Counted from the first letter of the stretch, positions 16,952-64,000 are shown. The stretch is 64,000 nucleotides of DNA from Spirochaetia bacterium (GCA_963666985.2 CAXXIA010000002.1:1760001-1824000), one strand, 5' to 3'. The notes: generated by a model from the letters alone, not told the origin. A program made the numbers and translations.

Positions 16952-17140
16952 GATTATTTCCTTATCACGAATAATAGTGGGTCTTTTGGCCCATTTCTTC
17001 CGATTAATTCCTTATTACGAACAAATTGAAGCACTTTGATGAAAGCCGCTTCCGATTAATTCCTTAAAGCGAATTCGCATTATATCTTTATAGCTGTATG
17101 AAGCTTGATAATCCTTCATTATTAATTTTTTATCACGAAT
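16952..17140. repeat. Four degenerate 21-bp direct repeats (GATTAATTCCTTATCACGAAT consensus) downstream of the integrase
   Basis: Copies at 16952, 17002, 17054, 17120; the last overlaps the integrase stop codon. Confidence 0.7.
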
Positions 17141-17966
17141 TCGTATCATCCAACGGGGATCTGACTTGCTTCAAGATTTCATCAGTCATATGCGTATACA
17201 TCATTGTTGTTTTCAGGTTTGAATGGCCCAACTGGCTTTGAATAACCCGAACGTCTGTTCCTCGTTCCAATAGATGTGTGGCAAAAGAATGCCTTAATGT
17301 ATGACAGGAAGCTTTTTTTCTTATCCCTACGTGTCCTTTGGCCTTTTCGAAAGCGGCCTGTACTGATCTAATTTGATATCTTCGTCCGCTTCTGGTTGTA
17401 AAAAGCGGGTCCTTTCCGTTTCTTTCTCCGATGATTGAGGATAATTCAGGGATTAATGTATGTGGGAGAACGACATAACGATCCTTTGCTCCCTTTCCAC
17501 GCTTAACATGAATCCGTCCATATTCTAAATCAAGATCACCAATATTAAGAGCAACTAATTCACCGACCCGCAGACCTGATCCGTATAATAGTGCAAGCAT
17601 GAGCCGATGCTTCCTGTTGTTAACAGCGTCCAGTAGTTTTACAACTTCTGTTGGGGTTAAAACGGCCGGTAAGGATCTAGATCGCTTTCTTCGAAGAGAA
17701 AAAACTTCTAGCGGCATCCTTAAGTAATCATGATAAAAGAATTTAAGTGCAGCAAATGCCATTTCACGACTTGCCTCTTTATCTTCAAAAGACTCAAGAA
17801 AATACCGAACTTTTTCTTCTCTCCCTAAATTCCGTCGAGATATTGTAAACTCAAGATAACGGGACAACATTTGTGTATAAGCCTTAATTGTCCGCTCAGA
17901 ATAGCCCCTAATCACAAGTTCTCTTTTATAGTTGTTGATAAGTGATTCCTTGGATATGATCTTCAT
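17133..17966 (-). CDS. intI: Integron-integrase-like tyrosine recombinase, short form lacking the IntI-specific insertion
   Basis: RGYSERTIKAY N-terminus, LPAVLTPTEV, LLYGSGLR, GKGAKDR, HTLRHSFATHLL, LGH, MYTH; divergent from the cassette array. Confidence 0.85.
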   Translation of the reverse strand: MKIISKESLINNYKRELVIRGYSERTIKAYTQMLSRYLEFTISRRNLGREEKVRYFLESFEDKEASREMAFAALKFFYHDYLRMPLEVFSLRRKRSRSLPAVLTPTEVVKLLDAVNNRKHRLMLALLYGSGLRVGELVALNIGDLDLEYGRIHVKRGKGAKDRYVVLPHTLIPELSSIIGERNGKDPLFTTRSGRRYQIRSVQAAFEKAKGHVGIRKKASCHTLRHSFATHLLERGTDVRVIQSQLGHSNLKTTMMYTHMTDEILKQVRSPLDDTNS

Positions 17967-18029
17967 ATGCGTTATAACGCTTTGTTAGCTCATTTTTCTT
18001 GATAAGAGACTAATTAAAAGATGATTAAT

Positions 18030-18060
18030 GTATCGAGTTAGCATCTATGATGAGTTATAA
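18030..18060 (+). other. attI: Putative attI site (crossover G/TT at 18054)
   Basis: GTTATAAGCCATTTT is the exact reverse complement of the cassette 1 end (19201-19215); GAGTTA repeated at 18035 and 18052; no attC body upstream. Confidence 0.75.
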
Positions 18061-18268
18061 GCCATTTTTCTGTATAGATTTATATGTAACAAATAAGAAT
18101 AACAAATAGCGCCAGATGGATTATTCGCAAAAGGAGAACGCGCGATAGCTATAAGGCGGTCCTTGAAGTATACTAAGTATACAGAAATTGCTTCTCTTCA
18201 CACTTCATTTGGCATTTACTCTCTTCTGAGTTGAGGAGATTACGATTTTGAACAAAGGAGGAGTGAAA

Positions 18269-19162
18269 ATGAGGATCGGGACGTTCAATGTAGAGAATCT
18301 ATTTGCGAGGTATAGATTTAACAGCAACTTTGATCCGATTAATAGCGATGGATTTTCAATAAATAATCTTGCTTTTAGCATTAACGATGAAACTGCAAAA
18401 CAAATAACCGCAAAGGCAATACGAGAAGTAGATGCTGATATCTTAGCATTACAGGAAGTTGATAATCTAAAAGTTCTTGATCGATTTGTTTCAAGCTATC
18501 TTGCAAAAGAAAAGTATAAGCATCGGATATTGATTGATGCATTTGATCCAAGAAATATCGATGTTGCACTCATTTCTAGATATCCAATTAAGAATGTAAA
18601 AACTTATAGGTCTGAAAGAAATAGATCAAATACTGCGAGTCTTTTCTCAAGAGATTGTCTTGAGGTTGTGATTGATGCTGAAGGAAAAGAATTGACGGTA
18701 TATGTTAATCATTTCAAATCAATGTTAGGTGGTCGTGATAATACTTTTACTAGGAGAAAAGAACAAGTTGAAAAAGTTGCTGAAATTATAAAGGAAGCAT
18801 GGCAGATAAAGAACTACGAAGGCAACTATGCAGTAGTCGGTGATTTTAATGATTATTTAGAAGGCCGGACCTCGCTGACTGATTTGATTACACATCCAGG
18901 ATTGAAGAATGTCAGTGAACGTATTTTAGAATCAGAAAGATGGACTCACTTTTGGGCCGGTGGCAATGAATATAGACAATTAGATTTCATACTACTATCC
19001 CCTCAGTTGGCCGAAATAAATAATAATGCTCCAGACATAATGAGAATGGGGCTTCCTTATCGAGCCGAAAAATATTCTGGAGATCGGTTTGATTTCGTTG
19101 GAGAAAACACTCCAAAGGCGTCTGATCATTGTCCTATTGTCATGGATATAGAATTAGTTTAG
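18269..19162 (+). CDS. Endonuclease/exonuclease/phosphatase family protein (cassette 1)
   Basis: TFNVENLF, LQEV, NHFKS, GDFND, LDFI, SDHCP; GGAGG RBS. Confidence 0.9.
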   Translation: MRIGTFNVENLFARYRFNSNFDPINSDGFSINNLAFSINDETAKQITAKAIREVDADILALQEVDNLKVLDRFVSSYLAKEKYKHRILIDAFDPRNIDVALISRYPIKNVKTYRSERNRSNTASLFSRDCLEVVIDAEGKELTVYVNHFKSMLGGRDNTFTRRKEQVEKVAEIIKEAWQIKNYEGNYAVVGDFNDYLEGRTSLTDLITHPGLKNVSERILESERWTHFWAGGNEYRQLDFILLSPQLAEINNNAPDIMRMGLPYRAEKYSGDRFDFVGENTPKASDHCPIVMDIELV

Positions 19163-19208
19163 ATCGTAAAAGGAATTAGGATAGGTAATACTACTCAGAC
19201 AAAATGGC

Positions 19209-19426
19209 TTATAACAGCTGTTGATGCGCTCCGGCCGCTAAAAGTGTTTAGCGGCCTCCGGGGCTTCGCCCAAATTTCGTTTTGGCATGGCGTCTTGCAG
19301 ATGCAGATCCAGAAGTGATGTGATACAGTCAAAGGCGAACATGGTGTTGCTGTAGAAGAGCAAGAGCACATGCCAACCGGCTTTCAGCCGGACACGAAAC
19401 GTTCGCATAACAGCGGGCCGTTAATT
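19209..19426 (+). repeat. attC: attC-like site 1 (type A, 218 bp)
   Basis: AACAGCTGTTGATGCG...CGCATAACAGCGGGCCGTT. Confidence 0.85.
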
Positions 19427-19468
19427 GCAATATCGAGGACTCCGTTTTATAGAAAGGAGTTGAATGAC

Positions 19469-20203
19469 GTGAAAAACAAAATCTTGATCGCTTCAATAAT
19501 AGCAGTTCTATGTTTCCCTTTTGTGATCTATCTAACTAGATTTCCTGGACTATACTCTGCTAACTCGGTGGAATGGGGAATCTTCGGAACGTTTATTGGT
19601 GGACTACTATCATCAATTTTCGCTGGTTTGAGTTTTATTGTAGTCTTACTTGTATATTGGCGCTCAAATGAGGATAGAAAGAATCGAGAGTCGCGCGAAA
19701 CAGTTCTTAAACTGCTGGAAGAGCTAAGTAATAGATATAAGAAAATTGTGATTAGAATTGAAGATACTGCTCAGATCGGAGAAATGGTATTTTCCTATTT
19801 TAATAGTAGTGCTTTTCAGCTTTATAAATTGTACCAAGACTATCTTAAAAACAAAGAAAATGAAAACCTTAAGGGACAGGTTAAGGCGCAAGCCTTACAG
19901 ATGGTCTTCTCAATCAATACAATACGCGAGTATCTACGATTTGTTGTTCTTACTTATCGATACATTGTGAATAAGTCAATTGAGAAAGAATTTCTTTCAA
20001 TACTATCAGCAAGACTTACAGAACAAGAGATGATAGCTCTTTCTATTTTGTTGTATGACGAAATTGAAGCTGATGACAATTTGTTTAGCTATTTAAAGAA
20101 TATGAAATACGGACCAATCGAAGGCTATGCTGCAATCGGAAGAAGTCTTACAGATGCCTTAAAGCTGAATTCTCCGGAACTACCATCAAATTTGAGTTTA
20201 TGA
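19469..20203 (+). CDS. Membrane protein, putative abortive-infection (putAbiC-like) family (cassette 2)
   Basis: Two TM segments with WGIFGTFIGG motif; C-terminal ILSARLTEQE; AAGGAG RBS before GTG. Confidence 0.55.
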   Translation: MKNKILIASIIAVLCFPFVIYLTRFPGLYSANSVEWGIFGTFIGGLLSSIFAGLSFIVVLLVYWRSNEDRKNRESRETVLKLLEELSNRYKKIVIRIEDTAQIGEMVFSYFNSSAFQLYKLYQDYLKNKENENLKGQVKAQALQMVFSINTIREYLRFVVLTYRYIVNKSIEKEFLSILSARLTEQEMIALSILLYDEIEADDNLFSYLKNMKYGPIEGYAAIGRSLTDALKLNSPELPSNLSL

Positions 20204-20268
20204 TTAGGAATTATTGATTTACATGGAGAAGCGAGAATAATTGCTGGTTAGAAATGAAACGATACTGC

Positions 20269-20476
20269 AATTAACAGCTGTTGATGCGCTCCGGCCGCTA
20301 AAAGTGTTTAGCGGCCTCCGGGGCTTCGCCCAAATTTGCCTCTGTCATAGATTTTGCGAATGTCTGGCACTGTGGTAAGATGAGTTGCGGTTAGCGGTTG
20401 AGGTTGTGAAGAATCGCAAAATCTCCGCCAGTCGCTACGCGAACGGCAAACTTCGCATACCAGCGGACCGTTATTT
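20269..20476 (+). repeat. attC: attC-like site 2 (type B, 208 bp)
   Basis: Conserved termini; TTTGCC...AGATTTTGCG...CGCAAAATCT...GGCAAA arms. Confidence 0.85.
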
Positions 20477-20530
20477 GCAAGAATGAATGACGATTTCTCC
20501 TCGCCCATCCATGGGCTCGGTGGTTAGAAG

Positions 20531-21760
20531 ATGTCAAAATATAAGAAACGAGACAAATACCAGCAGCTATATGAGTTTTTAAAAGCAAAAGAAAGCAGAT
20601 CCGAGTCATTCACTGTTGAAGAAATAATAACCGCGACAGGTTATCAAGAAGGATCCGTAAAGGCATATATTCGAAACAAGCTCAATAATGTTTATCTATT
20701 CTTAATAGATGATAGTCACTATCAAGTTTCAGGAATTGCATCAAAGACACCTGATGATTTTGAATCGATTATGTCGCAAAAAAGCGATTTGGTTGTGTCA
20801 GACTCAGAAAGCCTATTTACAAGCCTTAGGGATCGTAGTCTTCAAGCGTTTTATACTGCAATATCTGTATATAACAATCCCTTGCATGAATATAGGATAG
20901 AATCCTTTTGTATTCTTTTATCAAATGCATGGGAACTTTTACTCAAGGCTAGAATTGTTCAACTGGAAGGTGAAGATAAAATATACAAATCAAAAGGGAA
21001 GACAATTTCGTTAACAGAAGCCTATCGTAAAGTCTTTCCACGTTCATCTGATCCTATTCACAAAAACTTAGAAACACTTACCGAGATTCGAGATTCAGCA
21101 GTACATCTACTTATTCCGGATATTCAACATTCTTTATCTCGTATATTTCAAGCTAGCATTTTTAATTTTCTTTCAAAGGTAAGAGAATACAAATATCCAA
21201 ATAAGTACCATAGCGATTTACCAGGTCTCTTATCTTTTGTTACAGATAAACAAGACGTTCCTGAAAATGTAATACGTCTAAAGTATGGAACCTATGCAAG
21301 TGGACTAATAAAAGAATTTATTGAAAAGAATACCTCACGCGAATCCGAAGTTTCCGATATGCGTTATTCAATACCAATCGACTACAAGGTAGTTCTGACA
21401 AAAAGTGAAAAGGAAGGAGATTTATCTATCCGTATAGATAAGGATGGAGAACCCGCCATACTGGTAGAAAAACCCAAGGATGTTAATAAAACGCATCCCT
21501 ATCTTCAGAAAAATGTAATAGAAGCCGTGAATCAAGGTCTCGATGATGTCGGTCGGTCTCAATACCATCTCAACCGATATTCGTTTCGTGGAGCTCTCGA
21601 AGTTGAAAAAGTTAGGAGAACACAATCCAATAAATTCTATCATTTATTAGAAAATCCGGAAGTTCATAAGTACTCACAAGCATTTATAGATCTTCTTCTC
21701 CACAAACTTTCAAACAGTGATAGTTACCTACAGTTGTGTAAAAAAGCTTTGAAAAAATAG
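20531..21760 (+). CDS. DUF3644-type (HEPN-like) protein (cassette 3)
   Basis: YNNP...RIESFCILLSNAWELLLKA and RDSAVH (RxxxxH). Confidence 0.7.
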   Translation: MSKYKKRDKYQQLYEFLKAKESRSESFTVEEIITATGYQEGSVKAYIRNKLNNVYLFLIDDSHYQVSGIASKTPDDFESIMSQKSDLVVSDSESLFTSLRDRSLQAFYTAISVYNNPLHEYRIESFCILLSNAWELLLKARIVQLEGEDKIYKSKGKTISLTEAYRKVFPRSSDPIHKNLETLTEIRDSAVHLLIPDIQHSLSRIFQASIFNFLSKVREYKYPNKYHSDLPGLLSFVTDKQDVPENVIRLKYGTYASGLIKEFIEKNTSRESEVSDMRYSIPIDYKVVLTKSEKEGDLSIRIDKDGEPAILVEKPKDVNKTHPYLQKNVIEAVNQGLDDVGRSQYHLNRYSFRGALEVEKVRRTQSNKFYHLLENPEVHKYSQAFIDLLLHKLSNSDSYLQLCKKALKK

Positions 21761-21821
21761 AAGTGGCCTGAAAGTACATCCTTGTACTTTCAGGGAGACT
21801 TATCCATCTCGTCATTCCTGC

Positions 21822-22039
21822 AAATAACAGCTGTTGATGCGCTTCGAATACATTTGCAGGCAAATGTATTCTCCGGGCCTTCGGCCAAATTTCGTTTTGG
21901 CATGGCATCTTGCAGATGCGTTTTCGAAAGTGATGTGATACAGTCAAAGGAGAACATGGCATTGCGTTAGAAGGGCAAGAGCGCATGCCAACCGGCTTCG
22001 CCGGACACGAAACGTTCGCATAACAGCGGGCCGTTTGGC
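21822..22039 (+). repeat. attC: attC-like site 3 (type A)
   Basis: Conserved termini; variant first hairpin GAATACATTTGC/GCAAATGTATTC. Confidence 0.85.
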
Positions 22040-22096
22040 GAAATCTGTTTTAGAAAAATATTTTTTTGCCTCACCTTCCATGGTTCGGCTTTGTTC

Positions 22097-22381
22097 TCAC
22101 CTGTAGGCGCTACTTCGGGGTTCGAGAGAAATAATACTGACAATTCTAACGGCGTCATCGATTACATAGAAAAGTCTATAGTTACCAATTCGATACCGCC
22201 ACGTTTCTGGTTTCCAGTCTTTCAACTTTTTGATGTTTTTTCCGAAATAGGGGTTTTTGCGTAATTGGTCGTAGACCATGCCTGAAATCTTTCTGTATTG
22301 TGATGAACTTCCATTCATTCGTAGCTTTTTTAGATCTTTAAGAAATTGATCCGTTTCAAAAATTTTAAATCGTTCAGACAA
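22097..22381 (-). CDS. RelE/ParE family toxin (cassette 4)
   Basis: WRYRIGNYRLFY motif; overlaps antitoxin. Confidence 0.88.
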   Translation of the reverse strand: MSERFKIFETDQFLKDLKKLRMNGSSSQYRKISGMVYDQLRKNPYFGKNIKKLKDWKPETWRYRIGNYRLFYVIDDAVRIVSIISLEPRSSAYR

Positions 22382-22613
22382 ATCGACCTCTACCGTTCTT
22401 AGCGTCTTTGGTTCCCTGCTTCATTCGTTTTAAAAGGCTTTCATCAGAGAGGATGCTTTCCATTTCGAAATCGTCGGCATATTCAACCTCTTCGATGTAT
22501 CTCATTGTTGCAGTCTCGATAAAATTTGAAATCGAACGATTCTCAGCATCGGCATGGACTTTTAAGGAATCGTAGAGTTCTTCATCAATTCGTAGAGAAA
22601 CAGTTTTGGTCAT
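22374..22613 (-). CDS. Ribbon-helix-helix antitoxin (cassette 4)
   Basis: KTVSLRIDEELY...ENRSISNFI; acidic C-terminus. Confidence 0.85.
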   Translation of the reverse strand: MTKTVSLRIDEELYDSLKVHADAENRSISNFIETATMRYIEEVEYADDFEMESILSDESLLKRMKQGTKDAKNGRGRFV

Positions 22614-22755
22614 ATCATTATCCCCTCTATGAATACATTGTATTCATATGTGTTTAAATTAGTTCATAGCGTTATTGAAGTCAATAGGGCGATTTTAGAG
22701 GTCTCCCAAGTACATCCTTGTACTTGGAAGAGTGGTAAAACACCAAACAGACTTC

Positions 22756-23027
22756 GCCAAACAGCTGTTGATGCGCGGCGGCCGCTAATGGGATTAGCGG
22801 CCTTGGGCCGAGCGATGGAAAACCAAGAGCTTTTAAATTTCTGTTGAAGGGAAAAATCAAATTGGTTCGGCTCGGCCAAATTTCGCTTTGGCCATGGTTC
22901 TTGCAGATGCGTTTCTAAAAGTGGTGTGATAAGCTGAAGAGCGAACGGGCTTTCTGTTAAAGTGCAAGAACGCATGCCAACCGGCTTCGCCGGACGCGAA
23001 ACTTCGCATACCAGCGGAACGTTTAAC
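22756..23027 (+). repeat. attC: attC-like site 4 (type A with extra arm, 272 bp)
   Basis: Conserved termini; inserted GGCCGAGC...GCTCGGCC arm. Confidence 0.85.
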
Positions 23028-23155
23028 GAAAAAATCAGAAGGCCTTTTCCATGCCGCCTTTCTTGGTGCCATGAATAGGAATATTCAATTTCCTAAAAGA
23101 ATTAATGGTAATAATGTATAGTTAGTAATCCTGTAGTGATAACGAAGAGTAGAAA

Positions 23156-23860
23156 ATGGAAAACATAATCAAAATACTCGGTGAGCATCCAACTGCTGTT
23201 ATTGCAGATGCTGCTTTTAAGATTGGAGCAACAGTTCGTCTTCTTCCTTCAAATCTATACTCTCTTAAGCCAGATGCACGATTAATCGGTAAAGTTACAA
23301 CCGTTAAATGCAATAACGATTTGGTCTCTATTCTCGAGGGGCTTATGCGTGCAGAGAGTGGAGATGTTTTACTAATCGACAATAATGGTTTCTCAGGGGC
23401 AGGTTGTATCGGAGATGTCATCGTTTCGGAAGCTGTTCGTAAGAAAATCTCTGGGATTGTTGTCTATGGATCCATTAGAGATAGCCAGCAAATCTCTACG
23501 ATGGAAATTTCTGTGTTCTGTACTGGAAAATGTTCTGTTGGGCCATTGAAGCTACCTGGGCAGCAGTCGAAAAATGGTCTTGTTAACGTAGTCTTGGAAA
23601 TAGAGGGAACTTCTATAAAACCTGGAGATATTCTTATTGGCGATGTTGATGGTGTAATTGTTGTAGAAACCGATCGCCTTGATGAAATTATTAGCAAAGC
23701 AGAAGAAATTGAACATAAAGAAGAGACTTTAATGAAAAGAATCGAGTCAGGAGAAAGTCTTACAGACATATTTGGGGTTAAGAAGTTCTTAGAGAAAAGA
23801 GAAGGGGATCCAGAGTATTTATTCAATTCTCATTTGGCAGAACAGAATGAAACGATTTGA
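23156..23860 (+). CDS. RraA family protein (HMG aldolase-like) (cassette 5)
   Basis: GDVLLID, GCIGDV, GSIRD, PGDILIGDVDGV. Confidence 0.88.
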   Translation: MENIIKILGEHPTAVIADAAFKIGATVRLLPSNLYSLKPDARLIGKVTTVKCNNDLVSILEGLMRAESGDVLLIDNNGFSGAGCIGDVIVSEAVRKKISGIVVYGSIRDSQQISTMEISVFCTGKCSVGPLKLPGQQSKNGLVNVVLEIEGTSIKPGDILIGDVDGVIVVETDRLDEIISKAEEIEHKEETLMKRIESGESLTDIFGVKKFLEKREGDPEYLFNSHLAEQNETI

Positions 23861-23931
23861 TTCAGTGAAAGGTGAGCCAATAAGTGATTAGATAGAGGTA
23901 TTTTCTATTTGGCATTTTTAGGGATTTCTTC

Positions 23932-24208
23932 GTTAAACAGCTGTTGATGCGCGTCGGCCGCTAAAGGTGTTTAGCGGCCTTGGGCCGAGCGATGGGTATT
24001 GGTTAAGTTTTATTATTTTTGAAGAAGAAGAGAAAATCAGATTGAATCGGCTCGGCCAAATTTCGCTTTGTCATGGCTCTTGCAGATGCGTTTCCGAAAG
24101 TGATGTGATACCATCAAAGGCGAACAATGAATTGCTGTAGAAGAGCAAGAGCGCATGCCAACCGGCTTCGCCGGCCGCGAAACTTCGCATACCAGCGGGC
24201 CGTTAAAG
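23932..24208 (+). repeat. attC: attC-like site 5 (type A with extra arm, 277 bp)
   Basis: Conserved termini; extra GGCCGAGC/GCTCGGCC arm. Confidence 0.85.
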
Positions 24209-25047
24209 GAAATTCGGACGACGGAATAAAAAAGGTCTCTTTTTTGAGGGTTTTTTTCTGTGGCAGCCTCATTCCCTTCATTTGAACAAGTAACAAAAAC
24301 AGAATCCCTTTGAGTGTTCAGATTTTTTTAACAGGCCTTCCTTCTCTTTGAACGAAACAGGTCGTTTTCATACGGCTTTCTCCTCACCCCCCTCGCCTTT
24401 GAGATCATCTTCAAGAAAGAAACCAAAAGCATCGGAATAAAACTCGCTTCGGGATCAGAAGCACTTAGTGATAAGGCGGTCGGTTCGGGAGAACTTGTGT
24501 CGTGAAGGTTTATGGTTTTTAACGATTATGGGAATCGCTCATGAGAAAATCCTTATCCGTTGATGGCTATCGCTTCGGGAAATGAGGCGCTTCCGGTTTG
24601 ATCGGTTCGCGAGAAAAGGGGTGGTAGCCTGAGAAGAATGAAGGGATGGAGATGAGAAGAATGGAGATTGTTTTCTCCGTAGTTTTGCCTTTGAGAATAA
24701 GGCTGAATGCTTTAAGAGAATACCGGTGTAGAAGGAGAAGACGAACATTCGGATTTACAGAATCCGTCCTGAGAGAAAGAGGTCGGGAAAGGCGAATTGC
24801 ATCGGATGAAGGCCTGAGTAAAGTGATGAGGCGATGAAAGGGAGAATAGGGGTCAGTACGAGAGAATGGATAGAAATTCCGTTAAATGAGTAAAAAGCGG
24901 AAGAGGGAAGTCTGTAAAAGGATGAATGAAGAAAAGATGAGAAGGAGAAGGGCAAGAAGAATCGAAACAAAGGGTCCGGCAAAACGGCGAGGAGGGGTGA
25001 GGAGAAGGAGAGGTCTTTATAGATGCGTCGTCCGAACTTCCTTTAAC
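24203..25047. other. Gene-less cassette 6 (about 840 bp body)
   Basis: 22-bp terminal inverted repeat; only short low-complexity ORFs. Confidence 0.7.
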
Positions 25048-25248: not shown

Positions 25249-25298
25249 GCTTTTTCGTTTTTCCAGTTAATAACATTAATTGCCATAAGGAGGGAGAA

Positions 25299-55733: not shown

Positions 55734-55799
55734 GAACTTGCTCAAAAGAAAAATATTTTCATATTGAAAGGTAGTACTTATGTATAGTACTATAATTTT

Positions 55800-56057
55800 G
55801 TGACGAGTAAGAACCGAAAGACACTCGAGGCCATTTTCCAACGACCAACATCATCGAATATCAAATGGAAGGACATCGAGACCCTTTTTCTTTCTCTCGG
55901 TGGGGAAATCTCCGAAGGCTCGGGTTCTCGCGTACGAGTAAAACTCAATGGAGAAAGAGCTGTCTTTCATCGGCCTCATCCTCAGCCAACGACGGATAAA
56001 GGGGCGGTTGAGTCTGTAAAAAGATTTTTGAAGAACGCAGGAGTCAAAGATGCTTGA
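55800..56057 (+). CDS. hicA: HicA toxin (cassette 24)
   Basis: WKDIETLF, EGSGSRV, HRPHP. Confidence 0.92.
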   Translation: MTSKNRKTLEAIFQRPTSSNIKWKDIETLFLSLGGEISEGSGSRVRVKLNGERAVFHRPHPQPTTDKGAVESVKRFLKNAGVKDA

Positions 56058-56385
56058 GTATAAAGGTTATATAGGAACAGTCACATTGGATTCAGACGCT
56101 CATATCTTTCATGGCGATGTCATTAATACTCGAGATGTTATTACCTTTCAAGGTCGGTCAATCGATGAATTGGAGCAGGCTTTTCATGGTTCGATCGATG
56201 ACTATCTGGAATGGTGCAAGGAAGATGGTTTGGAACCGGAAAAACCATACTCTGGTCGATTCAATTTACGTATTTCTCCTGAACTTCACAGAGAGGTGGC
56301 CATTCAAGCCAAAAAGGAAAAAATGTCAATTAACAGCTTCGTGGAAAAAGCTGTTAAGGACGAATTGTCTCTGAGTCACTCATAA
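56050..56385 (+). CDS. hicB: HicB antitoxin (cassette 24)
   Basis: YKGYIG, ITFQG, PEKPYSGRFNLR. Confidence 0.92.
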   Translation: MLEYKGYIGTVTLDSDAHIFHGDVINTRDVITFQGRSIDELEQAFHGSIDDYLEWCKEDGLEPEKPYSGRFNLRISPELHREVAIQAKKEKMSINSFVEKAVKDELSLSHS

Positions 56386-56386
56386 G

Positions 56387-56803
56387 ATGTTTAATCTGAC
56401 ACAGAAAGCAGCAAAACATTTCAAAGAAGTATATTCATCACTAGAAGGGCGATCAGGAAATTTCTGGCGTTTGGATACTGTATATATTAATCACAGAAAA
56501 ATATTAATGTGTGTACATGAACCGACTTTGTTTACTCATTTATTTTATGGAACCGAATATAAAACGTATGAACCAATAGTCAGAAAATTAAAGGATTATC
56601 ATCCTTGGTTTATGGATGGGTTCAGTGTTGGAAAGGGACTGAATAGAAGAGTTGGTGGTTCAATGACGGATATGAAAATTTCAATGAAATACTATTCAGA
56701 AAAAACACTTAAAGAACTCGAGGAAGAAATTAATCAAACGCCTTATTCATATCTTGAACATGGAGTTCCAGAATCTGAGCTTCAGGAATTTGTATTAAGA
56801 TAA
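56387..56803 (+). CDS. Hypothetical protein (cassette 24)
   Basis: 138-aa ORF directly after hicB, ending before the attC. Confidence 0.7.
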   Translation: MFNLTQKAAKHFKEVYSSLEGRSGNFWRLDTVYINHRKILMCVHEPTLFTHLFYGTEYKTYEPIVRKLKDYHPWFMDGFSVGKGLNRRVGGSMTDMKISMKYYSEKTLKELEEEINQTPYSYLEHGVPESELQEFVLR

Positions 56804-56814
56804 AAAGCAAGTTC

Positions 56815-57022
56815 GCCAAACAGCTGTTGATGCGCTCCGGCCGCTAAAAGTGTTTAGCGGCCTCCGGGGCTACGCCCAAATTTGCCTCTGTCATAGATTT
56901 TGCGTATGTCTGACGTTGTGGTAAGATGAGTTGCAGTTAGCGGTTAAGGTTGTGAAGAATCGCAAAATCTCCGCCAGTCGCTTTGCGAACGGCAAACTTC
57001 GCATACCAGCGGACCGTTTAAT
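56815..57022 (+). repeat. attC: attC-like site 24 (type B)
   Basis: Conserved termini and arms. Confidence 0.85.
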
Positions 57023-57088
57023 GAATATTCGATGTATTTATGAATGTTCTAAGGTGCAATATTAGTAGCAATTTCAGGAGCTAACTCT

Positions 57089-58309
57089 ATGACGAGTTTT
57101 ATAATATCCAACGCCGCGGACCCTTCTGAATCCTCTATAGAAATTTCCAAAGAGAGATATCTCGAGTACACAGATGAGTCGAGATTTGCTTCGCTTTTTT
57201 CTCTATCCGACGAGGCAATTGAATCCATAAAGAGTTGGCCATGTCTTATTACTACTGAGGGTCGTAGTTCTGAAATCATAAGATTGGTAAAAATCACATC
57301 GATCCTCGAAACCAATTCGGCGTTTCAAGTAGCTTTTCAAGTATTGCCATTAAAAAAACCACTTACTAACGGATTGGTATGGAAAGAAAGGCACCGTCTT
57401 GGTCTCGAAGAGTTCGAATTCAACCGGTATCATTGGACAATAAAAACAAGCAATATTTTCGAAGTGCTTCTCGATGAGAGCTTTGTTGGATCATCACAAA
57501 TAGAAGCGTTTCCAGAAATGGAAGTTCCTTCCCCAATACGATCAGATCTGATAGCCGCTAAGAATATTATTTCTGAATGGAGTCATACAGAAATAGATGA
57601 CTTCCTCTTAGAGGCCGGAGTTGTCGGTTTGAATGCAGATCGTTCCATCGGAAGTAGACATGATCGCGTAAACACTATTCTTCGATCAGTATTAAAAAAG
57701 CCATGGTTAAAAACAGCTGAGAACCGATTGTTTTCTAGCTTTATGATTGAAAAGGCGGGTGCTGGAGTAACAGATCAAAATCCAGAAGCGAATGACGAAC
57801 AACGGGTGCCTGACGAACCCGTAAAGGAATTGGGGCTAGATTTTCCGATATCGTCAGAAACACCAACAGCAGTTTCGACTCGAGTATTTGTTGTTCATGG
57901 GCGTAATGATGTCATTAGAAATCAAATAGTTACTTTCTTATCAGAAATAGGGCTAGATCCAATCGTTTTACACGAGCAGGCAAATATGGGCCGCCATTTG
58001 CTTACGAAGTTCATAGATGAAGCCGATTTAGCCTCTTTTGCCGTGGTCATAATGACAAACGATGATGAAGGTGGTCTTTTAGATGAAGGAAAGAAGCCAC
58101 GGGCACGTCAAAATGTAATATTTGAATTGGGATACTTCATCGCACACTTGGGCCAGAGGAAAGTCTGTGCGTTAATATCTCCAGGCCTTGAGACTCCTTC
58201 GGATTTCGATGGCATTGTATATGTTCCTATAGATGAGCAAGAAGATTGGAAAAAAACACTTCATCGTGAATTAGCTGCAGTAGGTATTCCCGTAAAGGTT
58301 CCTAAGTGA
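57089..58309 (+). CDS. Protein with C-terminal Cap12/Pycsar-type TIR domain (cassette 25)
   Basis: VFVVHGR, LHEQAN, RARQNVIFELGYF, PSDFDG. Confidence 0.85.
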   Translation: MTSFIISNAADPSESSIEISKERYLEYTDESRFASLFSLSDEAIESIKSWPCLITTEGRSSEIIRLVKITSILETNSAFQVAFQVLPLKKPLTNGLVWKERHRLGLEEFEFNRYHWTIKTSNIFEVLLDESFVGSSQIEAFPEMEVPSPIRSDLIAAKNIISEWSHTEIDDFLLEAGVVGLNADRSIGSRHDRVNTILRSVLKKPWLKTAENRLFSSFMIEKAGAGVTDQNPEANDEQRVPDEPVKELGLDFPISSETPTAVSTRVFVVHGRNDVIRNQIVTFLSEIGLDPIVLHEQANMGRHLLTKFIDEADLASFAVVIMTNDDEGGLLDEGKKPRARQNVIFELGYFIAHLGQRKVCALISPGLETPSDFDGIVYVPIDEQEDWKKTLHRELAAVGIPVKVPK

Positions 58310-58333
58310 TTATTTATAGCAATCTGAATATTC

Positions 58334-58548
58334 ATTAAACAGCTGTTGATGCGCTCCGAATACATTTGCATGCAAATGTATTCTCCGGGGCTTCGCCCAA
58401 ATTTCGCTTTGGCGATGGTTCTTGCAGATGCGTTCCTAGAAGTTGTGTGATAGGCTCAAATGCGAACAGGTTTTCCGTTGAAGTGCAAGAACGCATGCCA
58501 ACCGGCTACGCCGGCCGCGAAACTTCGCATACCAGCGGAACGTTATGT
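58334..58548 (+). repeat. attC: attC-like site 25 (type A)
   Basis: Conserved termini; first hairpin as in site 3. Confidence 0.85.
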
Positions 58549-58598
58549 GCTTTTTCGTTTTTCCAGTTAATAACATTAATTGCCATAAGGAGGGAGAA

Positions 58599-59051
58599 AT
58601 GGGCATCAATTATCAATTAAAAGCAGAAAAAGGCAAAATCGAAGATGAATTAAATTCCGCAATTAACAGGCTTATTTCTGGCTGCGAAAAGCTTGATATG
58701 GCTTTAGCCTTCGAAATCTTCTCAGATTCATCTGAGTTCTTGATGATGGGAACGGATGGAAGCCTTTGTGATTATCAGACTTACTTGAAAAACAATATCG
58801 ACTATTTATCCGGTTGTGAAAGTTTTAAGTTGATAACGTTTGATCGAAAAATACGAATCATAAACAGTGAGGTAGCTATCTTCTCATGGGCTTATGGGGT
58901 TGAGGCAAAATTAAGAACGGGAGATATTGATATTATTGATAATGCAGGAGCTTCTTTTGTCTTCCGAAAAATAGAGAATACATGGAAGGTTGTATATTAT
59001 CATGAGTCATCAGTACCTCCGAAAAGAAACTCTCCACCAAGAGAATCATGA
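58599..59051 (+). CDS. NTF2/SnoaL-like protein (cassette 26, duplicate of cassette 7)
   Basis: Protein identical to 25299-25751. Confidence 0.8.
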   Translation: MGINYQLKAEKGKIEDELNSAINRLISGCEKLDMALAFEIFSDSSEFLMMGTDGSLCDYQTYLKNNIDYLSGCESFKLITFDRKIRIINSEVAIFSWAYGVEAKLRTGDIDIIDNAGASFVFRKIENTWKVVYYHESSVPPKRNSPPRES

Positions 59052-59145
59052 CGATTGAAATCCAAGTGTAAATAAGGGATTACACAGAACGTCTCGCAAG
59101 TATCGCTTTCTGTTGCTGTTTATAGTGATGTCGGAATCAGAATAT

Positions 59146-59550
59146 ATGGAAAATGAAATAGTAATAGATAAAAAATCCAGCCGGGCGATTTGGGCTCTAT
59201 AGTGGAATTGCATGGCAACTATTACAGCAAGCATTTTGGCTATAACATAACCTTTGAACCATATGTTGCTTTACCTCTTGCTAAGAAGAAAGCAAAAACT
59301 GCGCAGTTGAGATGGTTTATCCTTGATGGAAGTCTCCAAGGAAAAGGCATTGGAAATCAACTAATGAGATTTTCTATTGATTTTGCAAGAGAAAAAGGAT
59401 TTTACAAGCTGATTCTCTGGACGGTAAGGGATCTAAAAAGTGCGATTCATCTGTACGAAAAGAATCTTTTTTTTGCTTAAGAAAGAAGTTTCCCACAAGA
59501 TTTGGGGGGTGGAATTGACGGAACAACACTATGAATTGAAGTTGAAATAG
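59146..59550 (+). pseudogene. GNAT pseudogene (cassette 26)
   Basis: Versus 25846-26334: -1 in an A run, 84-bp deletion, +1 in a T run. Confidence 0.85.
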
Positions 59551-59616
59551 GGTTAATTCCGAATACTCTGTTTAAGAAGATGAACTCTCAATAAAGACAA
59601 ATATGAGGGAAAAAGC

Positions 59617-59824
59617 ACATAACAGCTGTTGATGCGCTCCGGCCGCTAAAAGTGTTTAGCGGCCTCCGGGGCTTCGCCCAAATTTGCCTCTGTCATAGAT
59701 TTTGCGTAAGTCTGTCTCTGTGGTATTATAAGTTGCAGTTAGCGATTGAGATTGTAAAATTTCGCAAAATCTCCGCCAGTCGCTACGCGAACGGCAAACT
59801 TCGCATAACAGCGGGCCGTTTGAT
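59617..59824 (+). repeat. attC: attC-like site 26 (type B)
   Basis: Conserved termini and arms. Confidence 0.85.
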
Positions 59825-59842
59825 GAACTTTTCGCTTTGAAG

Positions 59843-61185
59843 TGAGCGACCAGGACATCCTTTACATTTTAGGTTCAGGACATCGTTTACACAAAACAAG
59901 CTTAAACGAAGCATTTGAATCCATCAACTGAAGGGAGAAAGGCATAGGTTTTCAAATCAATTTCTCCCAATCTGAGATTGTCAAACCATACGGTGAAGCT
60001 CTCATCCTCATTCTCCCGAAGTCCAACTTGGTATCCTGAAAAGACATAACTGACAAAGACTCTATGCCTGTCGATAGTAACGGCTCCCCGATTATTCACC
60101 ATTCTCACCAGATACCCGGCCGGGTAGATCACCTGAGGGATTCGAGGAGGGAAAGGCCGATTGGACTTTGTGTAAATACTTCCGGGAGTCTGCATTTTGA
60201 GAGCTTCATGCGGACGAACACTGTTGAATTGATTTCTCCAAACATCAAAGTGTGCCTGATGTTCTGAGAGGTTCCCTTGAATCTGTCCCTGCAATTCGCG
60301 TTTGATATCGGCATGCATTCTTTCATGCCCTCCGTTTTCACAAGGCCTTCCTGGAGTGATGCGATCAAGTTCAATTCCCAAGGCCAGCCACCAAACACTT
60401 AAGCGGGTGAGTCCGAGTAATCCCTTCATGGAAGCAAAGGGTGGTCCGTTATCGGAGCGGATTACCCGAGGGATTCCATAGAGAGAAAAGAGCTTTTCGA
60501 ACTCTGTTCTAACTTCTTGTGTGTCAGCCTTTTGGAGAGCTTTGATGGTGAAGATGTATTTGGAGTATTCATCCCGAACCGTCAGAGGTTCACACTTTTC
60601 ATTATCGGGAGTGTACCACCATCCTTTGAAGTCGACCGTCCAGATATCATTAGGGGCTTTGGCCTGCAGATGTGTTTGGATTCGGCTGCCTTTGGTCTGC
60701 TGCCGTTTCTTTCGATGATGAACCAGTCCTGCTTTATCAAGGATGCGTTTGACGGTGGTGAGGCTTGGGGGATTATTATGAGGATGGGTCTTCTGGTAGA
60801 TCTCGAGAATCTTTTTTGGCCCCCAGCTGGAGTTGTGCAACGTCTTGATCCGGATAATACCGCATATAACGTCTTCAGGCGTTTGGTTGGGGCTGCTGCG
60901 AGGTCTACGGGGTCGTTCCTTCAACCCGGCGAGCCCTTCCTGGATAAACCGGTTTTTCCATTTAAGGCCTGTCGGCCGGGAGATCCCGTACTCAGCACAG
61001 AGGTCTTTCATACAGACATGGGGATCCATGGCCTTGAGGGCGAACTCGAATTTGACGTCCATAATATTGGTCTCCTTCCACGGCATAACCAGCACCTCGA
61101 TAAGGGAAAGTGCTGATCATTTTAGTTCTTGTCGTGTAAAGGATGTCCTGGTACTCTCGTGTAAACGATGTCCTGAACCCGTACC
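59843..61185 (-). mobile_element. IS481-family element copy 3 (1343 bp)
   Basis: Same ends as copies 1 and 2; AAG(T) duplication. Confidence 0.9.
59902..61095 (-). CDS. IS481-family transposase
   Basis: Protein identical to 38334-39527. Confidence 0.9.
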   Translation of the reverse strand: MLVMPWKETNIMDVKFEFALKAMDPHVCMKDLCAEYGISRPTGLKWKNRFIQEGLAGLKERPRRPRSSPNQTPEDVICGIIRIKTLHNSSWGPKKILEIYQKTHPHNNPPSLTTVKRILDKAGLVHHRKKRQQTKGSRIQTHLQAKAPNDIWTVDFKGWWYTPDNEKCEPLTVRDEYSKYIFTIKALQKADTQEVRTEFEKLFSLYGIPRVIRSDNGPPFASMKGLLGLTRLSVWWLALGIELDRITPGRPCENGGHERMHADIKRELQGQIQGNLSEHQAHFDVWRNQFNSVRPHEALKMQTPGSIYTKSNRPFPPRIPQVIYPAGYLVRMVNNRGAVTIDRHRVFVSYVFSGYQVGLRENEDESFTVWFDNLRLGEIDLKTYAFLPSVDGFKCFV

Positions 61186-61269
61186 AAGTCGTTTTATCTT
61201 GTCTGAGTTAGAAGGAATGTTTTTCTTATTGTGAAAATGATATTTCTTATGCCAGCGAATCTATTCAAA

Positions 61270-61422
61270 TTATACGGTAATCATTTTTTGATTCTTTTTA
61301 AGAATCTTCGTTAAGGATTCTCCCCAGTATTTTACTTCAATTCCAACATCTTCAAGAAGAGCCGTAACTCCAAGTTGATCGGCGCAAGCCTTACACTCAG
61401 AAACCTTTGCACCATTCTTGCT
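61270..61422 (-). pseudogene. 3' fragment of a DsrE-like gene (cassette 27)
   Basis: Reads KNGAKVSECKACADQLGVTALLEDVGIEVKYWGESLTKILKKNQKMITV-stop with no start codon. Confidence 0.55.
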
Positions 61423-61802
61423 CAATTGCTACCCGATAGAATCATATTAATAATTCCTTCTTCAGTTTCGGGTATATCATAATCTCCAGTGAGTTTCCCA
61501 GGATAGTGATACGCAATCCCCTCTTTCTCATTTCTTTCGAGACAATCTAAAAGCTGTTCAGTGCTATTTTTCTTAATAAATCTGGCAAATGCTCTTATTC
61601 GTATTTTATCCAGCATACTTCCATTACATGGAAATTCATCGCATTCCCAACAACCATTGAGTTCTCTTTCTTTGCAACAGCGAAGATTTTTACACCATTC
61701 CTTATTTGCACAACCATCGTTACGGCATCCAAGACAATCTGCATTCTCACTGCAAACAGCACAACCAAGACCGCAATATGCAATGCCTTTTTGTCTATCC
61801 AT
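61422..61802 (-). CDS. DUF3795-type Cys-rich protein (cassette 27)
   Basis: AYCGLGCAVC, CLGC, CC, GCWECDEFPC. Confidence 0.8.
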   Translation of the reverse strand: MDRQKGIAYCGLGCAVCSENADCLGCRNDGCANKEWCKNLRCCKERELNGCWECDEFPCNGSMLDKIRIRAFARFIKKNSTEQLLDCLERNEKEGIAYHYPGKLTGDYDIPETEEGIINMILSGSN

Positions 61803-61830
61803 ACACTTTATCTCTTTTAAGAAATCTGAA

Positions 61831-62157
61831 TTATCGTAATTGACGATTCAACAAAATATCTTCAACATTTCTGCGTCCGTCCATGACGGCCATAATAAAA
61901 ATCTTTTGCTGTTCTACCCGGTAAATCACTCGCCATGGAGAGATAATAATCTCACGATATCGATAAACATTCAGATCCTTCAATTCGGGAACAACGCGTC
62001 CGTGTTGTGGGAAATCAGTCAGTCTGGATACTTCGGTTTCGATTTCATCAAGAATCTTACGAGCAATGCTGATTGAGTCTATTTTGATATACTCAATGAT
62101 TTCAAAGAGATCTTCACGGGCAGTTTTGGTCCAGAAAATCCGAAACGATTTAGGCAT
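61831..62157 (-). CDS. RelE/ParE family toxin (cassette 27)
   Basis: AREDL.EI.EYI, FPQHGRVVPEL, WRVIY, DGRR. Confidence 0.9.
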   Translation of the reverse strand: MPKSFRIFWTKTAREDLFEIIEYIKIDSISIARKILDEIETEVSRLTDFPQHGRVVPELKDLNVYRYREIIISPWRVIYRVEQQKIFIMAVMDGRRNVEDILLNRQLR

Positions 62158-62425
62158 TTTCTAAAAGGTTCCGAGCGTCTTGAAAGACAGAGGCATGTTC
62201 TACAAGTTCGTTGTTTTCGGTATCTCTTTCGCCTGCAGCCATAAGTTTAAGAATCCCAAGGCTATTTCTCATATCTTGATAAGACTTTGTATCCATAAGG
62301 ACAGCTTTCGCTTCACCATTTTGAGTTATCACAATAGGGCTATGAGTTTCATTAACGCGTTTGAGCGTATCGGCGGCATGAGTCTTGATATATGAAATTG
62401 GCTTAATATCTTCCGAAACATTCAT
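62150..62425 (-). CDS. Phd/YefM antitoxin (cassette 27)
   Basis: IKPISYIK, PIVITQNGEAKAVL. Confidence 0.9.
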   Translation of the reverse strand: MNVSEDIKPISYIKTHAADTLKRVNETHSPIVITQNGEAKAVLMDTKSYQDMRNSLGILKLMAAGERDTENNELVEHASVFQDARNLLENA

Positions 62426-62509
62426 AGTGTTCTCCCAACCTATCTAGTCTTTATATGTTACTCTAAAAAGACTGGCGAGGCAATGTGAGAGTGTGAGTAG
62501 GAAAAGTTC

Positions 62510-62717
62510 ATCAAACAGCTGTTGATGCGCTCCGGCCGCTAAAGGTGTTTAACGGCCTTCGGGGCTTCGCCCAAATTTGCCTCTGTCACAGATTTTGCGA
62601 GAGGCTAGGGCTGTGGTAAGATGAATGGGAGTAAGCGGATGAGGTTGTGAAGAATCGCAAAATCTCCGCCAGTCGCTTCGCGAGCGGCAAACTTCGCATA
62701 CCAGCAGAACGTTAAGT
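62510..62717 (+). repeat. attC: attC-like site 27 (type B)
   Basis: Conserved termini and arms. Confidence 0.85.
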
Positions 62718-62807
62718 GCAATTGCCCTGCCTCTTTTTTAAGAGGTAATAAATGGTGAAAAGCCGACATCCGTGTCGGCTAAGACAAAAATAAAAAGGAG
62801 ATACCAT

Positions 62808-64000
62808 TTGTCTAAAGTCAATCAAATAGAAAAGGCTATTAGAGAACTTGAGGGCGGCAAATTTCAGAAACTATGTGACTCTTTCATTACTGTTAAAGAA
62901 AATGTTGAAATAACAAGTGTTGGTAGCCACGTAGGGACTTATAAAACGGTTAAAGGTACTCCAGACTCATATTATACAAAAGAAAACGGTCAGTTTGTTT
63001 TCATTGAATATACAACAACACAAAAAAAAGATTTACTTGAAAAAATACTTGATGATATAAAAAAGTGTTTTGATATAAGCAAGACAGAAATTCCAAAAGA
63101 ACAAATCGATAGAATTATATATTGCCATATAGATAAACTTGAGGCTGCGGAAAAAAGAAAGGTAATAAAGCTTTGCCAAGAAAATGGTTGTGATTTTGTA
63201 AATTATGATGTTAGTTCTCTTTCTTTTGAGTTGGCTCATTCCTATCCGCAAGTTGCAAATGATGTATTAGGCATTTCGACAGATACTCAACAGGTCCTCA
63301 TACCAGAAAAGTTTATTGAAGAAAAATCAAGGACTATAACTCTCAAGAATAGTTTTTTTCACCGCGAAGATGAAAAGGAACAAATTAAGGCAGCCTTAGA
63401 AATTTATGACTTAATCGTTATTACAGGAGATGCTGGAACTGGAAAAACTAGGATTGCTCTTGAGCTAATATCTGAATATTTAAAAGAATATCCAAATTAT
63501 TTTTGTTGTTGTATTGAAAATAGATATGCTACTTTAGAAGATGATTTTCTAAATTTATATAATTCTCATGATAATATTCTATTATTACTCGATGACTCCA
63601 ATAGAATTGCACAATTGAGCATGATACTTAGTTTTGTCAATCAAAAGCCGCAAAAGCTGAAACTGATTCTTACAGTTAGAAATTATGCAATAAATACTGT
63701 AATAGAAGCTATACGAGATAAAACATTTAAAACAATAGATATAAAAAAATTCAATAGAGGACAAATCAAAGAATTAATTTCTGATGAAAGTATTGGTGTG
63801 AAAAATCCAGTATTTATTGATAGAATCTGTGATATATCAAAAGGTAATGCACGCCTAGCAATTATGGCTGCTTCTGTTGCTATTGATGAAAATAACTTAT
63901 CATCTTTATCAAACACAATTAATTTTTATGATAAGTTTTTTAAAGACCTAAACAGAATCTTTTTGGATAGAAGTAACGAAAACATTAAAAAGACTTTAGG
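62808..64000 (+). CDS. Putative nuclease-STAND NTPase (cassette 28; runs off window, absent from ORF track)
   Basis: AAGGAG RBS, TTG start, MSKVNQIE...FQKLCD...KGTPD...FIEYTT; Walker A GDAGTGKT; Walker B LLLDD. Confidence 0.72.
   Translation, partial: MSKVNQIEKAIRELEGGKFQKLCDSFITVKENVEITSVGSHVGTYKTVKGTPDSYYTKENGQFVFIEYTTTQKKDLLEKILDDIKKCFDISKTEIPKEQIDRIIYCHIDKLEAAEKRKVIKLCQENGCDFVNYDVSSLSFELAHSYPQVANDVLGISTDTQQVLIPEKFIEEKSRTITLKNSFFHREDEKEQIKAALEIYDLIVITGDAGTGKTRIALELISEYLKEYPNYFCCCIENRYATLEDDFLNLYNSHDNILLLLDDSNRIAQLSMILSFVNQKPQKLKLILTVRNYAINTVIEAIRDKTFKTIDIKKFNRGQIKELISDESIGVKNPVFIDRICDISKGNARLAIMAASVAIDENNLSSLSNTINFYDKFFKDLNRIFLDRSNENIKKTL

Follow-up and report, generated by a model that had tools for sequence, protein, structure and literature searches.

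A 64,000-nucleotide stretch of the genome of a Spirochaetia bacterium (GCA_963666985.2, CAXXIA010000002.1:1760001-1824000; hereafter the window) probably contains the beginning of a sedentary chromosomal integron-type gene-capture system, of which both the integrase and the sites are unusual. An initial annotation, made from the sequence alone, had proposed a divergent cassette-shuffling system at this locus, consisting of a short, divergent IntI-like tyrosine recombinase, an attI-like GTT at position 18054 and 27 related, multi-branched elements, longer than canonical attC sites, that close units of AT-rich cargo. All of these components were found again in the analysis described here; the sizes given for the elements and for the cargo were revised. 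Shuffling itself is suggested by three observations, i.e., the attI junction, the cassette boundaries at G|TT and the presence at attI of a copy of cassette 75 that runs from GTT to GTT.

The genome assembly comprises 4.86 Mb in 3 contigs and is 93% complete. A genome search identified 84 co-oriented sites (83 complete, 191-269 bp) from G000:C2:1,778,054 to G000:C2:1,935,714, G000 being this genome, which corresponds to an array of ~157 kb with cassettes of 498-6892 bp (median 1413; 82 measurable cassettes). After the first 27 cassettes the window ends within the 28th, and the array continues past this point, position 64000. The cargo of at least 46 kb that had been proposed therefore pointed correctly to a large array, but was too low as an estimate of its size. 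The left-end motif of the sites has 27 matches in the window, all on the + strand, where 0.10 are expected by chance and 0 of 100 shuffles reach 27. The right-end motif, CGYATAMCAGC-N5-GTT, is likewise matched 27 times, once per element. Measured from AAC to GTT, these elements are 199-269 bp long. The initial figure of 207-277 bp was right in describing them as large and about 8 nt too long, presumably because some flank had been counted. Both in the window and among the 83 complete sites, they exceed the 57-141 bp that are usual for canonical attC sites. A perfect palindrome, AACAGCTGTT, is present at the left end of every site (e.g., 19213-19222).

The attI region lies between the integrase gene and the array, with its GTT at 88 bp from the integrase start. 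The 10 nt downstream of this GTT, when reverse-complemented, match the 10 nt preceding the AAC of site 1 exactly, which marks the GTT as a true junction. Directly upstream of it, the sequence TTAGCAT resembles an L′ box. The same relation recurs along the array, where the stretch that follows the GTT of site n has its reverse complement directly upstream of the AAC of site n+1. This cassette-specific R′/R″ complementarity is found in all 27 window cassettes, including cassette 1 at attI, with a mean exact complementary run of 8.2 out of 10 nt, compared to 0.74 when the left flank of a site is set against its own downstream flank. Genome-wide, at least 10 of 12 bases are complementary at 76 of the 84 boundaries, and R-stem pairing extends beyond GTT over a median of 15 nt (range 0-26). 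Each cassette thus holds both halves of its own outer stem, which are split on insertion, and the boundary pattern is therefore the one that G|TT recombination of a folded site would leave. In integron terms, a tyrosine recombinase adjoins an array with attI in between, and the cassettes are bounded at G|TT, with R′ being completed by the next cassette. A promoter and terminator scan of 17700-18400 yielded 1 promoter-like site, vs 2.6 expected, and is therefore uninformative. Between the integrase start and attI, a perfect palindrome, GCGTTATAACGC, was noted at 17968-17979; it includes GTTATAAC, which resembles the R box of cassette 1.

The array shows signs of recent activity. Cassette 1, located at attI, and cassette 75 share exactly 1366 nt without a single substitution, from within the left GTT up to the last T of the right GTT. 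The flanks of both copies are unrelated: the left one is attI in one case and another site in the other, and the cassettes that follow on the right differ. The pair of cassettes 31 and 45 is equally exact from GTT to GTT, the pair of cassettes 26 and 65 is exact to within one base, and other dispersed cassette pairs are 100% identical. Homologous recombination and mis-assembly were considered as sources of the cassette 1 copy and rejected, as neither gives the position at attI with these ends. Additionally, a 52.8-kb contig that another study assembled from a single sample (runs X3 and X4) carries the same chromosomal flank and integrase, with 90 other letters over 14500-16016 and 157 over 16244-18047 (16017-16243 is uncovered). 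Past attI, this contig has 6 other letters and then continues with window position 33279, i.e., the GTT of site 10. The relative therefore appears to have the same platform with a different first cassette, as read over ~30 nt beyond the joint in a contig rather than in reads. The data of runs X3, X4 and X6 are contigs, in which uncovered stretches are uninformative and joints between sites are possible repeat artefacts; only the attI joint was used.

These observations bear on the possibility that the array is a fossil, which was mobile in the past and has become fixed, its integrase being inactive or having taken on another function. The size of the array, an orientation that limits folding, several insertions of insertion sequence (IS) elements and a truncated last site would all fit such a state. 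Against this stand the perfect copy of cassette 1 and the other identical pairs, an intact integrase open reading frame (ORF) with conserved catalytic motifs, and the relative with its different first cassette, which together make a fossil highly unlikely.

The sites are predicted to adopt a branched fold. In an alignment of the 27 window sites, 97.3% of the cells in the computed fold are paired, compared to 84.5% in shuffles (0 of 500 reach the observed value) and 33-55% with slid partners. Compensatory changes occur in 15 of the 32 pairs and the covariation score is 0.322 (0.108 in shuffles, at most 0.076 with slid partners), although much of the variation lies between two or three site subfamilies, so that independent events are fewer than the cell counts suggest. 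According to the consensus of 67 short sites, the R stem of the computed bottom strand starts with AAC/GTT and continues with cassette-specific pairs (median 15 bp). It is followed by four unpaired bases (4-5 in the sites overall) on the 5′ arm only, and by an L stem of 11 bp with a conserved sequence and one bulged C, in which a G.A mismatch appears where the M of the right-end motif is C. The junction beyond it bears three parts, i.e., a branching stem, a short GGGC-GAAG-CCC hairpin and a covarying hairpin. The two branches of the branching stem are a GC hairpin and a long variable arm. A long type of site (n = 16, 261-269 bp) contains an extra AT-rich hairpin. The predicted architecture includes R and L stems, a bulged base on the ″ arm and a variable interior, as in an attC site, but has a one-sided spacer (5 vs 1 nt) and an R stem of ~18 bp.

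Folding and G.T wobbles favor the bottom strand. When folded as in an excised circle, with DNA parameters, the bottom strand is the more stable one in 74 of the 83 sites. Moreover, the first 12 R-stem positions comprise 864 Watson–Crick cells, 52 G.T wobbles formed on the bottom strand only, 4 formed on the top strand only and 17 mismatches; at the eighth position after GTT, 46 of 77 cassettes show a T.G on the bottom strand. As for the location of the array, the cumulative GC skew on C2 has its minimum, the likely replication origin, at ~1.68 Mb, only ~100 kb away from the array end that lies next to the integrase. By GC skew, the array is on the + leading strand, which places the bottom strands of the sites on the leading-strand template. 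The same orientation has been described for 25 of 30 sedentary chromosomal integrons, including all large ones, in a passage of PMC5371416.

Given this multi-hairpin architecture, the TTCG-type loops and the strong covariation, the elements could alternatively be repeated intergenic structured RNAs, either cis-regulatory or ribozymes, instead of DNA recombination sites. Structured RNA and single-stranded DNA motifs are indeed hard to separate computationally, as a passage of PMC5737381 points out. However, Rfam did not match the elements: at the gathering score, the only match in the whole window was an ALIL pseudoknot within an IS element, and at E ≤ 1 no match was obtained in 7.6 kb holding 7 sites. 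In addition, the more stable strand is predominantly antisense to the array direction, the neighboring ORFs have both orientations, and an RNA function leaves the GTT-exact duplicates and the attI junction unexplained. An RNA identity is consequently considered extremely improbable.

The integrase (PF00589, 5.5e-41; PF13495 is its N-terminal SAM-like domain) is a tyrosine recombinase whose catalytic motifs align with those of VchIntIA and are invariant in the clade alignment. Among solved structures, VchIntIA (2A3V) is the closest to it in both sequence and fold, and archaeal XerA comes next. The NCBIfam model NF040815 (XerA_Arch) is matched with 224.6 bits, above its cut-off of 220, over positions 1-262 of 263. 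The integron integrase model TIGR02249 is matched with 220.2 bits, below its cut-off of 265, in two stretches; the genome search located these at positions 2-177 and 240-314. The NF040815 name is given by score only, and a role in dimer resolution is not supported by the context. Separate XerC/D-like genes are present in the genome besides the array integrase.

What the protein lacks is the I2 helix, or intI_Cterm domain, of integron integrases. Residues 179-200 (22 aa) replace 65 aa of VchIntIA, and an AlphaFold2 (AF2) model (pLDDT 86) predicts a short loop without a helix at 180-198. In an 84-row alignment, the length between anchors is 23-29 residues in 52 short proteins (26 in the array integrase, which is one of them), 34 in the two XerC/D-like proteins of this genome and 68 in IntI1 and 28 spirochaete IntIs; it is 53 in another spirochaete IntI, whose gene contains an in-frame stop. 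The initial description of the enzyme as a short IntI-like recombinase was thus accurate. A tree was inferred with IQ-TREE from 82 rows, after removing the insertion columns, two partial rows and sequences shorter than 250 aa; 24 of 120 database matches had been chosen by hand for sampling. Canonical IntIs form one clade (support 99), the sister of which unites all short proteins (88). The array-linked short integrases fall in a spirochaete clade of 21 rows (91), next to short recombinases of the candidate phyla radiation (CPR; 94). As the short integrases do not group within canonical IntI, they would not be accounted for by I2 having been lost there recently.

In the literature, the I2 domain is considered indispensable. 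Passages of two papers describe it as required for cassette capture, as conferring single-strand recombination and as a filter in detection tools (PMC7790495, PMC4889954), and the additional IntI domain is held to be necessary in parts of others (PMC7790495, PMC9668308). Recombinases without intI_Cterm were reported near attC sites only where fewer than 3 sites were present, from which it was concluded that they are not IntI, in a passage of PMC4889954. Searches of the full-text literature did not turn up an account of large arrays with an insert-less integrase, with subscription-only papers and supplements falling outside the scope of the search.

The link between the short integrase and this kind of array is not limited to one genome. 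Short homologues with 41-45% identity head arrays in genomes G017, G022, G033 and G094 (the latter an uncultured Spirochaetaceae metagenome-assembled genome, MAG) and in a Marispirochaeta MAG, and together they span all three subclades. The strict site geometry AAC-N1-L″ (12 nt, one extra base)...L′ (11 nt)-N5-GTT, which is present in 27 of 27 window sites and 0 times in 5 shuffles, recurs in sites of 84 nt in G017, 136-138 nt in G022 and 198 nt in G094; overall, sites in relatives of the system measure 60-198 bp. The L sequences vary between genomes, yet they stay complementary in G017, G022 and G094. The array next to a canonical IntI in G022, in contrast, has spacers on both arms (AAC-AAAG...GGC-GTT), unlike the sites beside the short integrase. 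Across these genomes, integrase type and site geometry are shown to travel together, which points to co-inheritance. One site of G094 (L069, G094:C28, 4592-4789 (-), 198 nt) has L boxes and a spacer identical to those of the window sites. The short integrase of this host, which belongs to another spirochaete family, is only 45% identical despite the identical L boxes, which hints at cassette exchange between lineages.

In the search for relatives, a right-end regular expression caught 11 of the 27 window sites and was replaced by two sequence-independent detectors. The chain detector needs exact 6-7-mers and under-calls (2-3 sites in the G094 chain, vs ~5 visible ones), and at k = 6 it gives some spurious sites. 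The contig search for related loci used catalytic-motif patterns, with mostly canonical IntIs among the matches listed, and is no census; many other short-type loci are at contig edges and hence uninformative. A metagenome scan with a 17-mer gave at least 120 single matches. Among 80 metagenome loci that were read, the right end was combined with the inner motif in 2, and another 8 showed nothing beyond a permissive match to the right end; most of the 17-mer matches are therefore due to chance. At the CPR/DPANN loci examined, no convincing adjoining arrays were seen. A Nanoarchaeota MAG contig (L091, 332-6943) encodes an integrase with only ~16 extra residues, between the short and the canonical types, followed by a chain of 3 cassette-like units with sites of 114-178 nt. 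At L064 (G117:C1, 9946-16873), a 5.6-kb direct duplication is located just upstream of a short-type integrase without a visible array.

Several observations weigh against a gene-capture system that is operated by the short integrase. Firstly, no array was found at the short-type relatives in G117 and at the second loci of G015 and G022. Secondly, the remaining 8 of the 84 boundaries are poorly complementary (4-9 of 12 bases) and the array contains 6 orphan right ends, which suggest degenerate sites that were missed by the site search. Thirdly, the L stem pairs equally on both strands; since it does not discriminate, the choice of strand rests on the R-stem wobbles and the folding energies. Fourthly, crude ORF calling gives 92 ORFs of at least 50 aa on the + strand and 88 on the - strand. 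Reversed cargo of about half of the ORFs is more than expected for a promoter-driven array. Fifthly, the tree is a quick one, with SH-aLRT support only and with an uncertain root and direction of change.

Lastly, a canonical IntI is encoded elsewhere in G022 and G033, where it could act in trans. This leads to the alternative that the array was built or is serviced by a canonical IntI with I2, which either acts in trans or has meanwhile disappeared, and that the short recombinase is a bystander with another function. Canonical IntIs are common in the class (44 of 151 genomes over the cut-off), and the published requirement for the additional domain, as worded in parts of PMC4889954 and PMC7790495, points in the same direction. 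A family search, however, did not find a canonical IntI in G000 or in G017 (96% complete). The short integrase occupies the platform position, ~90 bp from attI in the window and beside arrays in the five other genomes, and in G022 the two integrase types are accompanied by different site geometries. Dimer resolution could moreover be provided by the separate XerC/D-like genes. A bystander role for the short recombinase is consequently regarded as very unlikely.

The adjacent I2-less integrase probably operates the array. It would excise cassettes by recombination between two sites and insert them at attI, acting on the folded bottom strand as single-stranded DNA. The L stem would be read by its sequence, because it is invariant within the genome and shows compensatory changes between genomes, and the R stem would be read by its shape. 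That an enzyme without I2 is able to perform such a reaction can be derived from XerCD, which acts on the folded strand of CTX phage, according to a passage of PMC7790495. As a speculation, the one-sided spacer (5 nt on the cleaved arm, 1 nt on the opposite one) may replace I2 and the extrahelical bases, thereby preventing a second strand exchange.

The short integrase may also operate by classical double-strand exchange at the L′-N5-GTT core, with the hairpins serving, for instance, termination or insulation. The integrase is Xer-like in length and without I2, the sequence of the L′ box is conserved in the manner of a recombinase-binding arm, and attI has the L′-like TTAGCAT, all of which agree with such a reaction. 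Yet double-strand exchange leaves unexplained why the start of a cassette pairs with the far left flank of its own site (median 15 variable nt), why L″ and L′ covary between genomes and why wobbles are concentrated on one strand (52 vs 4). Its probability is accordingly judged to be small. Single-strand recombination of hairpin cassettes without I2 can tentatively be taken one step further, to a proposal that we hold as possible but short of probable: the clade would represent either a pre-I2 state of integrons or an independent Xer-like invention, in which the one-sided spacer and the sequence-read L stem replace I2 and the docking of extrahelical bases.

The cargo in the window is AT-rich, as had been noticed initially, with a GC content of 31-46% in most 2-kb bins, vs 50-61% upstream and 51% for the genome. 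It contains the toxin–antitoxin pairs ParE/RHH, HigB/HTH, HicAB (twice), PIN and ParE/Phd, as well as GNAT acetyltransferases, a methyltransferase, an outer-membrane beta-barrel protein and an EEP nuclease. Defence-like genes are represented by nSTAND3 with Mrr, a CAP12/Pycsar TIR domain, Schlafen AlbA_2, a KAP NTPase and DUF3644 with a restriction-endonuclease-like domain. Such cargo is typical of chromosomal integrons. The largest cassettes contain IS3, IS481 and IS21 elements. Those in the window (Table 1) are an IS3-type element, two IS481-type copies with equal Pfam scores and an IS21 pair istA/istB; an rve_3 fragment is located at 50946-51473 in cassette 23, and the ALIL frameshift pseudoknot lies at 28614-28730, within the IS3-type element.

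Table 1. Features of the locus, in window coordinates. All 27 site rows are based on the left-end motif, the right-end motif and the strict R/L geometry, and are measured from AAC to GTT.
Feature	Position	Strand	Description
Short IntI-like tyrosine recombinase	17133..17966	-	277 aa; ORF, PF00589, PF13495
attI region	17967..18056	+	crossover triplet GTT at 18054-18056; 10-nt complementarity with site 1 left flank; start of cassette 1/75 identity
First 27 cassettes and start of 28th	18057..64000	+	site matches, cargo annotation
attC-like site 1	19213..19422	+	210 bp
attC-like site 2	20273..20472	+	200 bp
attC-like site 3	21826..22035	+	210 bp
attC-like site 4	22760..23023	+	264 bp, long type, extra AT-rich hairpin
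attC-like site 5	23936..24204	+	269 bp, long type
attC-like site 6	25045..25244	+	200 bp
attC-like site 7	26405..26605	+	201 bp
attC-like site 8	30072..30275	+	204 bp
attC-like site 9	31478..31678	+	201 bp
attC-like site 10	33077..33281	+	205 bp; GTT 33279-33281 is where the relative's contig resumes after attI
attC-like site 11	34675..34873	+	199 bp
attC-like site 12	37553..37753	+	201 bp
attC-like site 13	37991..38251	+	261 bp, long type; ends ORF-less 237-bp cargo
attC-like site 14	40828..41031	+	204 bp
attC-like site 15	41778..41982	+	205 bp
attC-like site 16	42220..42481	+	262 bp, long type; ends ORF-less 237-bp cargo
attC-like site 17	43315..43517	+	203 bp
attC-like site 18	44631..44830	+	200 bp
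attC-like site 19	46700..46899	+	200 bp, most divergent interior
attC-like site 20	48182..48381	+	200 bp
attC-like site 21	49295..49494	+	200 bp; one left-motif mismatch
attC-like site 22	50660..50864	+	205 bp
attC-like site 23	55530..55729	+	200 bp
attC-like site 24	56819..57018	+	200 bp
attC-like site 25	58338..58544	+	207 bp
attC-like site 26	59621..59820	+	200 bp
attC-like site 27	62514..62713	+	200 bp
IS elements in oversized cassettes	26627-29567, 38334-39527, 50946-53978, 59902-61095		cassettes 8, 14, 23 and 27, in this order
ORF-less cassettes	37754-38251, 41983-42481		cassettes 13 and 16; further copies are cassettes 30, 32, 62, 69 and 70

One family of cassettes is without ORFs. Its members consist of 237-239 bp of cargo and a long-type site (checked for cassettes 13 and 16), which amounts to ~500 bp in total. 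Seven stand-alone copies with 93-100% identity are scattered along the array, and the unit is additionally embedded in cassettes 23, 40 and 76. The unit might supply a promoter or a small RNA, or else be a selfish mini-cassette. At the far end of the array, outside the window, the 84th site is cut off after ~130 nt (G000:C2:1935714-1937200) and is followed by a distant tyrosine recombinase gene (E 4e-4 to the array integrase), so an inserted element may be present there. Elsewhere in the genome, a solo left part of a site (~95 nt, followed by unrelated sequence) was seen at G000:C2:2674171, far from the array, and a 20-nt left-end fragment at G000:C1:803967, ~6 kb from another tyrosine recombinase gene. 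By eye, the platform is flanked by ordinary genes, i.e., an NADP-malic enzyme-like ORF and a HAD-type phosphatase-like ORF (14729-16009 and 16069-16899).

A large array with an I2-less integrase and signs of recent activity would contradict the stated need for I2 and offers a testable natural case. If confirmed, the defining I2 domain would be dispensable for integron-type gene capture, and the locus would provide a natural comparison for the question how IntI evolved from Xer-like ancestors; an ancestor of IntI is lacking, as the authors state in a passage of PMC7790495. Integron censuses would then under-count cassette reservoirs of defence and toxin–antitoxin genes in spirochaetes and perhaps in other phyla. 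Moreover, the sites would constitute a new, structure-specific type of DNA recombination site, one arm of which is sequence-addressable. It is plausible that default integron screens may miss the locus; the CALIN label would fit only if the sites were detected at all.

Outside the spirochaetes, the nearest sequence neighbors of the integrase are the short XerA-like recombinases of CPR/DPANN organisms (NF040815, 'site-specific tyrosine recombinase/integron integrase'), with 38-46% identity, ~270 aa and the same 26-residue segment. The presumed role of these proteins is chromosome dimer resolution. For the proposed reaction, a precedent is XerCD acting on the single-stranded DNA of CTX phage, in which an I2-less Xer-type enzyme performs one strand exchange on a folded single-stranded hairpin, as described in part of PMC7790495. 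Unlike the system in the window, this is a hijack of the host dimer-resolution site, with no attI, array or dedicated integrase in the description given there. By the form of its sites, the locus resembles the DUF1874 motif (Weinberg et al., 2017), a multistem element in consecutive intergenic regions that is put forward in a passage of PMC5737381 as a possible unusual attC beyond the hairpin. In that passage its authors found no integrase, unlike the situation for the sites described here; these sites had no Rfam match at E ≤ 1, in an Rfam copy of which the DUF1874 content is unconfirmed.

Among integrons, those of the Treponema denticola type occur in the same bacterial class and likewise form chromosomal cassette arrays, but have full-length IntIs that score over the TIGR02249 cut-off and attC sites of 63-132 bp, according to the relevant part of PMC3607928. 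With the Vibrio cholerae superintegron (VchIntIA, VCR attC; 2A3V), the locus shares a divergent recombinase next to attI, a long co-oriented array, a G|TT crossover, R″/R′ and L″/L′ inverted repeats, a predicted extrahelical base on the ″ arm and a predicted bottom-strand bias. As in sedentary chromosomal integrons, the bottom strands are on the leading-strand template, cassettes are repeated, and the cargo comprises toxin–antitoxin, GNAT and defence-like genes. Unlike in these integrons, the integrase lacks I2 (26 residues vs 68 in IntIs) and falls outside the canonical IntI clade; the sites measure 191-269 bp and have a multi-way junction and an R stem of ~18 instead of 7 bp; and the spacer is one-sided (5 vs 1 nt), with an L box that is conserved in sequence within the genome. 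The locus is therefore best described as a variant rather than a canonical integron, which has the platform and the cassette boundaries of an integron and differs from it in the integrase domain, the length of the sites and the spacer, which is two-sided in canonical sites.

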